From Candidatus Thorarchaeota archaeon (GTDB lineage: Archaea; Asgardarchaeota; Thorarchaeia; Thorarchaeales; Thorarchaeaceae), in NCBI GenBank assembly GCA_004524445.1, contig SDNP01000009.1, positions 1 through 64,000 on the forward strand: 64,000 nucleotides of DNA. Reading direction: 5' to 3'. Below are positions 8,732 through 55,273 of the stretch, one piece after another (position 1 is the stretch's first letter; each line of letters begins with the position of its first letter). The notes beneath the pieces were generated by a model. It saw nothing but the letters and a program-made list of their open reading frames with translations. It made no database searches and was not told the DNA's origin. The position numbers and the translations under genes were made by a program.

Positions 8732-9340
8732 ATGGGGCTAGTGGATTGCATATCATGGCCCGCTGGAAAAACAGCGAAAACAGAAAAAAAGATGGAGGAT
8801 CGAGTTATTAGCCAATCATTTGATTTCATGCGGAAGGTTTGCATGATAGGTGCAGGTGGTTGCGGGAAAACCGCCCTCGTCAATCGTTTTCTTACACAGA
8901 AATTCACAAAACAGTATATCGTAACAATTGGGTCTCAGTTTGCCGTGAAGACAGTAGATGTTCCGAGAAACAATGGGCACTCAGTGACGGTTAAACTTCT
9001 CGTATGGGATCTGGCCGGCCAGAAGCGGTTTGATTTTATCCGTGGCAGCTACTACAAAGGTTCCAAGGGTGCTCTCTTGGTGTACGATGTAACTCGAAAG
9101 AGTACGTTTCGGGAATTGCCTAATTGGATTGCGGAAACTGAGAAGGCATTAGGTCACCGAATTCCCATAGTTCTTCTAGCAAACAAAGTAGATTTGGCAG
9201 AATCCCGTCTTATTTCTCCTGATATGGGCAGGCACTTCGCTGAGGAGAACAATCTTAGCGCTTATCTGGAAACGAGTGCACTCACGGGTCAGAACGTAGA
9301 AAATGCATTTGAAATTCTGGCGAAGAACACACTCACTTAG
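8732..9340 (+). CDS. Rab-like small GTPase
   Basis: GAGGCGKT, YIVTIG, WDLAGQKRF, YYKGSKG, NKVD, ETSAL; no C-terminal prenylation Cys. Confidence 0.93.
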   Translation: MGLVDCISWPAGKTAKTEKKMEDRVISQSFDFMRKVCMIGAGGCGKTALVNRFLTQKFTKQYIVTIGSQFAVKTVDVPRNNGHSVTVKLLVWDLAGQKRFDFIRGSYYKGSKGALLVYDVTRKSTFRELPNWIAETEKALGHRIPIVLLANKVDLAESRLISPDMGRHFAEENNLSAYLETSALTGQNVENAFEILAKNTLT

Positions 9341-53657: not shown

Positions 53658-54560
53658 TCAATCTCTATGCAATGCAAATTCACAACTCTTATTTCCCATA
53701 GCTCTGCATGAAGTTTCTTCCACAGAGATGCTAGGATTTCTCAATACCCCTTCAATAAACCCACTGAAAAAGTGACAAATGGGTCTATTGGCAGTCTTGC
53801 CGCGGCATACTGGGCATAACACGATATCATAGACTTCTTTATCACTGTCAAACTTCGTCACAGAGATTTCGTTCAACAAGTCTAGGAGCTCACTCTGTTG
53901 TATTACGAGCTTATCTTTGTACTCTGCCTTTGCAATCCGGTATCCAGCATATCTGCCAATGGTTCTAGCAACCAGGTCTTCAAGTTCTGGTTGATTTCCG
54001 AAGTAATTGTTCAGTTCTCTAACCAGTTTTATTGTATCCTCCGGGAAGTTTTGGATTATATCAAGTCCTAAATTCAAAACCATATAGAGCTGAGAGAGGG
54101 GAATGACCGAAGGTAGAAACTGAATAATCTCCGGATAATCGTTTCTAATCCTCATAAGGTGGTTATACAGATCACGAATATTCGATTTGAAACGCTGATA
54201 CCTCTCTCCTCGCACATACGCTTCTTCTTTCTGAAGGTGTCCTTCAAACTCCTGGAAGAACTGATTTTCAATTTGCTTTACCAGAATCTTAGCGAATTGA
54301 TCGTACTCCTGTTTCTCCACGTGAACGACAAAGAGAACAGGGTCTCTGGAGCTGTAGACCAAGAGCCCATTACCGGATTCTATTGCTTTCAGTTCTTCAT
54401 GACCTAATTCTTTTACGAGATTATTAATGGCGCTTGTGAAGCCTCCAAATAATTCCTCAAATGATTGTCGATTATCCCTTGCAGACCCATCCAAATTAAC
54501 ACTTACAAGTGGAATTCCAGCCAAATGGACGATATATACAGTCCTTACAATACCATTCAT
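53658..54560 (-). CDS. Longin/roadblock-like N-domain plus V4R (Bet3-like) domain protein
   Basis: VYIV..AGIPL...LFGGF.SAI..L..E; CPVC...PICHFFSGFIEG...VEETSC.A.G..SC.F. Confidence 0.8.
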   Translation of the reverse strand: MNGIVRTVYIVHLAGIPLVSVNLDGSARDNRQSFEELFGGFTSAINNLVKELGHEELKAIESGNGLLVYSSRDPVLFVVHVEKQEYDQFAKILVKQIENQFFQEFEGHLQKEEAYVRGERYQRFKSNIRDLYNHLMRIRNDYPEIIQFLPSVIPLSQLYMVLNLGLDIIQNFPEDTIKLVRELNNYFGNQPELEDLVARTIGRYAGYRIAKAEYKDKLVIQQSELLDLLNEISVTKFDSDKEVYDIVLCPVCRGKTANRPICHFFSGFIEGVLRNPSISVEETSCRAMGNKSCEFALHRD

Positions 54561-54931
54561 CTGCTTTCTTCTCCAAAAAGACGTCGTGAGAAGTCGTAAA
54601 ATTGACCGAAGGCAATGACGAGTAGGAATATGCTGATTAGAAACAACCAAAGTCTGGTTGGCTTCCAGATATAATCATAAAACTCTCCCGGAGTGAACCA
54701 AAACCACTCATCAAATGCATCCATTGCAGAGCTTATGATTCCAAAAACCGAAGAAACGAGCAACGGATAGAAAGTTCTCTTTCTTTCAATCATTGGATAT
54801 CTTCTTGCTGCATATATGATCACAACAAGTAGCAGCATGAATGCAAACACTGTAAACAAATCCAAAAATGCCTTCACAATCTCTAAAATGCCGCTGGGAG
54901 GATGAAACTCGAAGGTAACTCCTTGCATCAA
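54557..54931 (-). CDS. 3-TM membrane protein
   Basis: Three hydrophobic helices, RRYP loop, DAFD at end of TM2; ATGA overlap with V4R gene. Confidence 0.75.
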   Translation of the reverse strand: MMQGVTFEFHPPSGILEIVKAFLDLFTVFAFMLLLVVIIYAARRYPMIERKRTFYPLLVSSVFGIISSAMDAFDEWFWFTPGEFYDYIWKPTRLWLFLISIFLLVIAFGQFYDFSRRLFGEESR

Positions 54932-55273
54932 TTATAACCCCCATTGCTTTGCGCCATAGTCGGCAATCCGATATACCCCATAGGCGAATAGAAGCAGTCC
55001 TATCACGAATGTCGAACCATCAAAAAGATTGAGAACATCAACGAGCGAATCATCGAATTGCAGCGTATCCAAGGCATCGAAAATTGCATGAAACATCAGG
55101 AGTGCAATGCCTGCCACAATAGACGTCCAACCCTCTGAGGTGATTCGTGGGTGCTTCTTTCTGATTTTGTATGCAAACAATGTGGCTACAAAAAGGCCTA
55201 GGGCTATCAAAGACTCCATGCTAATCAGGAACAGATCCTCTGGGTCTAAAAGGCCTATCTGCATGGCAAGCAC
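54932..55273 (-). CDS. 3-TM membrane protein, probable paralog of neighbour
   Basis: Three helices, KKHP loop, DALD at end of TM2; abuts next gene. Confidence 0.75.
   Translation of the reverse strand: MLAMQIGLLDPEDLFLISMESLIALGLFVATLFAYKIRKKHPRITSEGWTSIVAGIALLMFHAIFDALDTLQFDDSLVDVLNLFDGSTFVIGLLLFAYGVYRIADYGAKQWGL

Follow-up and report, generated by a model that had tools for sequence, protein, structure and literature searches.

A likely membrane-linked longin-V4R module conserved across families of Asgard archaea

We examined a 64,000-nucleotide (nt) stretch of DNA from a Candidatus Thorarchaeota archaeon (GenBank assembly GCA_004524445.1, contig SDNP01000009.1, positions 1 to 64,000 of the forward strand), hereafter the window, and concentrated on three genes that lie head to tail on its minus strand and together occupy ~1.6 kb. 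The first two, which we designate A and B, encode paralogous membrane proteins, each with three transmembrane (TM) segments, and the third, C, encodes a soluble protein in which a longin domain is fused to a V4R domain. The genes and the two domains of C are positioned as follows (aa, amino acids; AF2, AlphaFold2).

54932-55264, minus strand: gene A, 3-TM membrane protein, 110 aa, no Pfam or NCBIfam family
54557-54928, minus strand: gene B, 3-TM paralog of A, 123 aa
53658-54560, minus strand: gene C, soluble longin-V4R fusion, 300 aa
54138-54560, minus strand: longin domain of C, residues 1-141, assigned from the AF2 model and structural matches
53661-54113, minus strand: V4R/Bet3-fold domain of C, residues 150-300, assigned from the Pfam V4R match and structural matches

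The genes are packed with almost no intervening DNA. The longest open reading frame (ORF) of A spans 54932-55273 and begins with GTG at 55273; an alignment of 18 orthologs opens at MQ..LLDP, which places the likely start at the ATG at 55264. The stop codon of A, TAA (54934-54932), is followed directly by a TTG and then by the ATG at 54928 that constitutes the conserved start of B, leaving a gap of 0 or 3 nt depending on which of these two codons is used. The stop codon of B, TGA (54559-54557), overlaps the ATG of C (54560-54558) in the tetranucleotide ATGA at 54560-54557. Junctions of this kind had been described in the original prediction, which was made from the nucleotide letters and their translations. 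Relative to a genome of the same genus (G001), differences at codon positions 1/2/3 number 19/4/38 in A, 16/8/43 in B, and 24/7/110 in C, and all three are real coding genes under purifying selection. In one further genome (G004, L035:1498-1500), B and C occupy a single reading frame with one TAG between them (GED*MERN), an arrangement that we do not count as fusion. In a salt-lake metatranscriptome library, one 195-nt contig aligns to 53754-53948, in the V4R-coding part of C, with two mismatches; we rejected it as proof of transcription or co-transcription, since RNA libraries can hold DNA and the contig crosses no gene junction. Two DNA runs, X2 and X3, also contain relatives, at roughly 91-99% identity over their contigs, which are uninformative on function.

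The trio is conserved as a unit across Asgard families. Among 41 genomes related to that of the window (G000), full-length orthologs of C occur in 10, with one more truncated at a contig end; all 11 of these loci carry A-B-C, and a diverged form is present in a second family. We extended the search to a sample of 301 genomes of the phylum, representing 30 families, in which a profile of B matched 46 genomes at E <= 0.01; 38 of these pass E <= 1e-8, and such strong matches are spread over 10 of the 30 families. A and B are adjacent in each of the 30 B-profile loci that we fetched, and C adjoins them in 28, the other two loci stopping at a contig end. At the 20 extended loci (6-19 kb), the trio is invariably complete, no gene besides its members is a conserved neighbor (the next commonest neighbor family appears in four), and the flanking genes are housekeeping genes. 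In total, the complete trio was verified in 32 genomes from 10 of the 30 sampled Asgard families.

Linkage of the three genes persists through rearrangement. The orders found are A-B-C, C-A-B (families f16, f29, and f30), and A-B convergent with C (family f17). Searching the 301 genomes with a profile of C recovered a full-length or both-halves C in the 38 strong-B genomes, with some exceptions: G104, G108, and G214 fell below the cut-off of this search, C being verified beside B in G104 and G214 only, and in G192 separate contigs carry B and C. The labels of homologs put the organism of the window in the Thorarchaeota. Named records containing C are labelled Thorarchaeota, Hodarchaeota, or Promethearchaeota, and a metagenome scan with divergent C sequences returned four loci, all from lineages already represented. 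We take the trio to be one operon, restricted to Asgard archaea. The conserved synteny on which the original prediction had staked itself holds up.

Proteins A and B share an architecture. Hydropathy analysis gives three peaks for A and two above threshold for B; an AF2 model of B built from 32 sequences (mean predicted local distance difference test [pLDDT] score 89.9; predicted template modeling [pTM] score 0.79) contains three long helices (residues 14-43, 49-75, and 81-117), together with a short N-terminal strand (5-8) that pairs with a WFWF strand (76-79) between helices 2 and 3. The three TM segments proposed for each protein therefore find support in both cases, as does the motif pattern said to unite them: A carries RKKHP between TM1 and TM2, as part of the basic sequence KIRKKHPR of loop 1, and FDALD where TM2 ends, and B carries ARRYP and MDAFD at equivalent positions. 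Averaged over 34 sequences, charge counts show acidic N-termini in both proteins (K+R 0.3-0.5, D+E 2.4), a basic loop 1 (K+R 2.2 for A, 3.4 for B), and, in A, a strongly acidic loop 2 (D+E 3.9). From this charge distribution, the positive-inside rule predicts an N-out/C-in topology, less clearly for B than for A.

Residue conservation in A, B, and C was scored at 34 loci drawn from 10 families. Two residues of A, D63 and D66, never vary and form a DxxD(T) motif at the predicted outer end of TM2, so that the acidic motif highlighted at this position in the original prediction is indeed conserved; E17, G45, G52, T67, G96, and W108 are kept in >=90% of the sequences. At the same level, B retains P45, G63, D73, E74, W77, F78, Y84, W88, K89, and F107, its conserved elements being a (Y)P loop, DE-WF where TM2 ends, WK(P) where TM3 begins, and a tail of the form FSxRLFGEE. 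Many residues in the outer loop of B are aromatic and of the interface type.

A and B are paralogs, as had been proposed, and ancient ones. Their similarity is not significant by BLASTP (E 3.2); profile-profile comparison with hhalign aligns them over 109 columns, that is, full length, at 79% probability and E 1.5e-5. At divergent loci the A and B profiles cross-match, the B-type protein of L057 matching the A profile at 3.9e-9 and another such case reaching 1.2e-8. In a maximum-likelihood tree of 68 rows, A and B form separate clades (support 100/98), with 34 loci represented in each and the same family groupings recurring on the A side and the B side. Since all 34 loci contribute one A and one B, the duplication must have come before the module spread, and the two copies have been retained together ever since, which points to an obligate A/B heteromer.

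No family in Pfam, NCBIfam, or PADLOC matched A or B. Among 1.84 billion proteins, the B profile found 22 representatives at E <= 1e-3, none of which is fused to A, C, or any other domain; the longer ones have acidic low-complexity tails. Comparison of the B model with solved folds by Foldseek returned nothing better than E 0.78, and a VIA-wide comparison gave a best Z of 9.3, with three-helix proteins of the Vtc1, NINJ2, and SdhD types at Z 7-9. At the level of the model, these matches are within helical-bundle noise, and no histidine-kinase membrane domain is among them. The ESM Atlas contains B in unnamed clusters only. A and B define a small membrane-protein family that has no Pfam or NCBIfam model. 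One weak match to the B profile, G020:C191:100-336, contains four in-frame stops (two TAG, two TAA) in a genus otherwise devoid of the trio, and may be a decayed remnant.

The AF2 model of C (30 sequences; pLDDT 84, pTM 0.80) comprises two domains with almost no linker. In the N-terminal domain, strands 5-12, 17-22, 58-62, 65-72, and 75-81 and helices 31-52, 84-109, and 125-141 follow the longin order, strand-strand-helix-strand-strand-strand-helix-helix, with the five-stranded sheet expected of this fold. Its structural matches, among which Z values less than 1 apart are to be read as ties here and below, include Sec22b (Z 14.9, root-mean-square deviation [rmsd] 2.8 over 127 residues; Foldseek target-normalised TM-score 0.69), VAMP7 (Z 14.6), the SRX domain of SR-alpha (Z 13.8, rmsd 2.1 over 119 residues), longin domain 1 of Fuzzy (Z 13.7), synbindin (Z 12.8), and sedlin (Z 12.5). 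The modelled topology and these matches bear out the suggestion that the domain is longin-like. At the sequence level, C has no Pfam longin match of its own; relatives found with phmmer reach Fuz_longin_1 above its cut-off (L017, 37 bits vs 26.1), and the C profile matches the longin domain of VAMP7 weakly (E 0.018-0.06).

Outside the C family, the nearest sequence relatives of the N-terminal domain are fusions of longin to Arf/Roc GTPases (L014, L017, and L018) and longin proteins with a winged helix-turn-helix (HTH) domain. Proteins of the latter kind recur in many genomes of the window's family as tandem pairs of ~300 and ~440 aa, with Fuz_longin_1 at the N-terminus and a TrmB-like winged helix at the C-terminus (for example, G000:C48:4935-6276 and L015:536-2799); beside the longin-Arf/Roc GTPase fusions, these are the nearest paralogs of the N-terminal domain of C. 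Within the longin domain, helix 31-52 (LFGGFSSAI...ELGH) is both the most conserved part and the least confident part of the model (pLDDT 50-56), a hint that it may be a partner-binding surface.

The C-terminal half of C matches Pfam V4R (PF02830) over residues 244-298 (E 6.5e-14; 52.2 bits vs a cut-off of 31). As modelled, residues ~170-300 display the whole-domain V4R/Bet3 fold, with helices on a four-stranded sheet, and resemble MopR (Z 12.8), PoxR (Z 12.6), Bet3 (Z 11.8), and Thor-TRAPPC3 (PDB 7YH3; Z 11.4), with concordant Foldseek results. Because MopR and PoxR score no lower than Bet3 and Thor-TRAPPC3, and if anything a little higher, we assign the modelled domain to the V4R superfamily at large and not to a TRAPPC3-like type in particular. 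Five cysteines (249, 252, 262, 285, and 293; CPxCR...C...C...C) are kept in >=90% of the 34 sequences, across families, so that C is the longin-like, Cys-rich V4R fusion that had been proposed; by analogy, the V4R domain carries a putative Zn-Cys-type site. NCBIfam yielded only below-cut-off matches to BchJ and MsvR, over the V4R Cys region. Neither Pfam nor NCBIfam found a kinase, cyclase, methyl-accepting, or DNA-binding/HTH domain in A, B, or C, in line with the original reading that such outputs are lacking. Matches of C or its V4R half, used as single-sequence queries, to PDB sequences of multicystatin, MoaC, and uS11 were rejected as spurious.

Two further observations concern relatives of C. 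The genome of the window has a second and only other V4R gene (G000:C10:7418-7609, a 188-aa open frame), which probably encodes a stand-alone TRAPPC3-like protein. In genus g7, an extra longin-V4R copy, ~46-47% identical to the C of the window, lies just upstream of A-B-C (L025:521-1438 in G007, L041:161-1078 in G258, and L023:3412-4452 in G022); it might pair with C in the manner of V4R or longin heterodimers.

The original prediction had the trio signalling to small GTPases such as the Rab-like protein encoded at 8732-9340 on the plus strand of the window. This gene does encode a small GTPase (202 aa, with GxxxxGKT, DxxGQ, and NKxD motifs), yet it lies 45 kb from the trio, and the genome has 22 Roc-family matches, five of them on the window's contig and three within the window, so that the gene at 8732 is not singled out. 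Roc-family matches number 10-57 per genome. When we searched the 323 ORFs of the 20 extended loci, 17 loci, the window included, had no small GTPase within ~8 kb of the trio. The other loci come from three families. In f17, the genes of a Ras-family GTPase (192 aa), a helical-repeat protein X (267 aa, no Pfam family), and C are packed closely on one strand, their junctions being a 10-nt gap and a 4-nt overlap, and are convergent with A-B. This cluster occurs in two genomes of one genus and on a metagenome contig whose sequence is the same as in one of the two. In no other layout does C belong to an operon with a GTPase, and the layout is not seen in the window or in family f1. In f16, a Roc/Arf-like GTPase gene and the overlapping gene of a 189-aa protein, Y, are convergent to C-A-B in three genomes of one genus and on one metagenome contig; Y has no Pfam family, no usable ESM Atlas match, and no relation to the C alignment by hhalign. 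In f30, a GTPase gene lies ~3 kb from the trio, with three unrelated genes between. The two clusters are located as follows.

L079:4966-7218 (G114): f17 GTPase-X-C cluster
L088:4421-6692 (G044): f17 GTPase-X-C cluster
L091:12-2264: f17 GTPase-X-C cluster
L080:4544-5588 (G078): f16 GTPase-Y pair
L089:5114-6206 (G043): f16 GTPase-Y pair
L090:6447-7548 (G063): f16 GTPase-Y pair
L093:7414-8458: f16 GTPase-Y pair

By our estimate, chance alone would place a GTPase within two genes of the trio in ~1.5-6% of lineages, or in roughly 0.3-0.4 of ten families, and its adjacency in two families represents a borderline excess. The consistent genomic link to a Rab-like GTPase implied by the original prediction did not materialize, adjacency being confined to f16 and f17, with f30 more distant.

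Several characterized systems share parts with the trio. A fusion of longin and TRAPPC3 from Heimdall has been mentioned in one sentence, for a single sequence (Tran, Akil, Senju & Robinson 2024, Commun Biol 7:273, PMC10933270; their Supplementary Fig. 10g); going by that description, its two-domain architecture is the same as that of C. The main text of that paper describes no membrane partner or operon for it, and the word "transmembrane" is absent there. In the same text, Thor-TRAPPC3 is reported to hold zinc through four cysteines, with a similar site in PoxR and ligand cavities in both (PMC10933270). Thor-TRAPPC3 (7YH2, 7YH3) has its fold in common with residues 173-300 of C (Z 11.4, rmsd 3.1 over 128 residues; Foldseek E 7.5e-4), and the Cys-bound zinc site of its crystals (PMC10933270) may be compared with the five conserved cysteines of C; it is, however, a stand-alone protein of ~155 aa with no longin domain, and in sequence it resembles C only marginally (profile E 0.49). 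The core of eukaryotic TRAPP, in which Bet3/TRAPPC3 is joined by the longin subunits Bet5, Trs23, and sedlin, contains both fold types that are present in C. TRAPP is assembled from separate subunits into a soluble hetero-oligomer, has Rab exchange activity, and includes no integral membrane subunit, whereas C unites both folds in one chain and is gene-coupled to two TM proteins.

Bacterial and archaeal V4R sensors provide a second comparison. PoxR and MopR are the best structural matches of the C-terminal domain (Z 12.6-12.8), MsvR is matched weakly, below the NCBIfam cut-off, and sensors of the PoxR/MopR type are described, in the main text of Tran et al., as having a zinc site and a ligand pocket (PMC10933270). 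In PoxR, MopR, DmpR, and MsvR, V4R is linked to transcription outputs of the AAA+ or HTH kind; in C its partner is longin, and C has no DNA-binding domain. Nor do A, B, and C contain the output domains of two-component or chemotaxis-type TM sensors, and the operon layout of MglA/MglB-type GTPase-roadblock pairs is absent from the window and from f1, being present only in f17. Longin or roadblock domains are held at membranes by a small anchoring partner in SR-alpha, whose SRX domain binds SR-beta, and in Ragulator. SRX is among the top structural matches of the N-terminal domain of C (Z 13.8), but the anchors in these two systems, a one-TM GTPase and a lipidated protein, respectively, are unrelated to A and B, and neither system includes V4R.

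We found no description of the A/B membrane proteins or of the three-gene module in full-text searches of the literature, on which supplements beyond those seen may bear; the portions seen of PMC12962969 and 10.64898/2026.10.28.762692 do not describe the trio. The folds themselves are known, and Asgard TRAPPC3-like and longin proteins have already been studied structurally.

Given their tight gene coupling, their synteny, a linkage that survives three gene orders, and their shared presence and absence, we consider A, B, and C to be one module, likely a membrane-linked longin-V4R module, whose products probably form one complex. A and B would most likely pair as a six-helix heterodimer, with the N-termini and the acidic and aromatic loops outside and the basic loops and short tails inside, and would tether soluble C to the membrane on its cytoplasmic side. 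V4R would act as the input, its putative Zn-Cys-type site and ligand pocket sensing redox state or a small hydrophobic ligand; longin would act as the output, a protein-docking platform most plausibly serving a small GTPase or its regulator. We give this picture of a membrane-associated adaptor or sensor, with A/B anchoring C, V4R input, and longin docking output, an even chance of being right; a GTPase as the output is a tentative proposal that we hold to be rather unlikely.

Several observations weigh against the adaptor/sensor picture. The module is patchy, being present in 38 of the 301 genomes and in seven of the 16 genera (g1-g16) of its own family, and is therefore dispensable. In G063, an f16 genome that is ~100% complete, C abuts the Y-GTPase pair while A and B are missing, the B profile having matched nothing there; C can therefore persist without its putative anchors. 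The cytoplasmic loops and tails of A and B are only ~7-13 residues long and offer little surface for docking C. D73 and E74 of B may simply pair with the conserved K89, in a structural role rather than as a ligand site. Finally, GTPase adjacency is found in only two or three of ~10 family lineages.

Other explanations would assign the parts differently. In the original prediction, A and B form a split receptor with an outer acidic ion or ligand site, and C is a one-chain TRAPP-like exchange factor that activates a Rab-like GTPase. In favor of this reading, both fold types of the TRAPP core do occur in the single chain of C; the conservation of DxxD in A and DE in B at the outer end of TM2, the GTPase-X-C operon of f17, the GTPase-Y pair beside the trio in f16, and the fusion of relatives of the longin domain to GTPases can likewise be cited for it. 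Against it, the V4R domain is as near to the bacterial ligand sensors MopR and PoxR as to Bet3, and TRAPP exchange is stated to require a longin heterodimer flanked by Bet3-type subunits (main text of Tran et al. 2024, PMC10933270). With no GTPase near the trio at 17 of the 20 extended loci, the window's included, and the Rab-like gene at 8732 unlinked, we find the receptor scheme quite unlikely, and an exchange-factor role for C improbable. Equally doubtful, in our view, is the related evolutionary proposal that TRAPP-type GTPase regulators had a forerunner in the trio, resident in the membrane and coupled to a receptor, in which A/B would sense an outside cation or ligand, or the V4R pocket an internal one, and longin would recruit or activate a GTPase; if true, prokaryotes would have a route from signal to GTPase that uses the same two folds from which the TRAPP core was later made.

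The invariant acids at a helix end and the conserved glycines of TM2 and TM3 would also suit a small cation channel or transporter, two paralogous 3-TM subunits lining a pore with an acidic ring and Gly-rich helices and C, through its ligand-binding V4R fold, serving as a cytoplasmic regulatory subunit with ligand or redox gating. That B resembles no known channel or transporter fold (best Foldseek E 0.78; best VIA Z 9.3, bundle noise), and that Pfam and NCBIfam offer no transporter match, leaves this unlikely. It is improbable, too, that the module handles lipids, with a membrane lipid or isoprenoid in the V4R pocket and A/B as the membrane dock: the module is membrane-associated, the outer loop of B is aromatic-rich, and Bet3 binds palmitate while Thor-TRAPPC3 has cavities (main text, PMC10933270), but no lipid enzyme is conserved beside the trio, and the polyprenyl synthase 2.8 kb away in the window is not conserved there in other genera. 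A conflict or defense system, in which V4R would sense an infection signal and the small TM proteins would be membrane-damaging effectors, seems very improbable. The patchy distribution would fit such a role, and a 2026 preprint, in the part seen, predicts V4R-effector fusions, including one with a 2-TM domain, in immune systems (10.64898/2026.10.19.760177); against it, A, B, and C have no PADLOC match at E <= 1, the neighbors are housekeeping genes, with no defense island and no asparaginase partner, and the family groupings recur in the A and B trees, a sign that descent has been mostly vertical.

The module bears on a wider question, namely what the longin and Bet3/V4R folds, which make up the core of eukaryotic TRAPP, were used for before eukaryotes. 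Partners for Asgard TRAPPC3 among the GTPases are, according to the main text of the Thor-TRAPPC3 study, hard to find from genome layout (PMC10933270); the f17 operon supplies a specific candidate. The module is compact, is kept across at least 10 Asgard families, Hodarchaeota-labelled records included, and ties both folds to a defined membrane pair. As such, it offers an expressible and assayable system for asking what an Asgard longin-V4R protein binds, be it zinc, a ligand, a membrane partner, or a GTPase.

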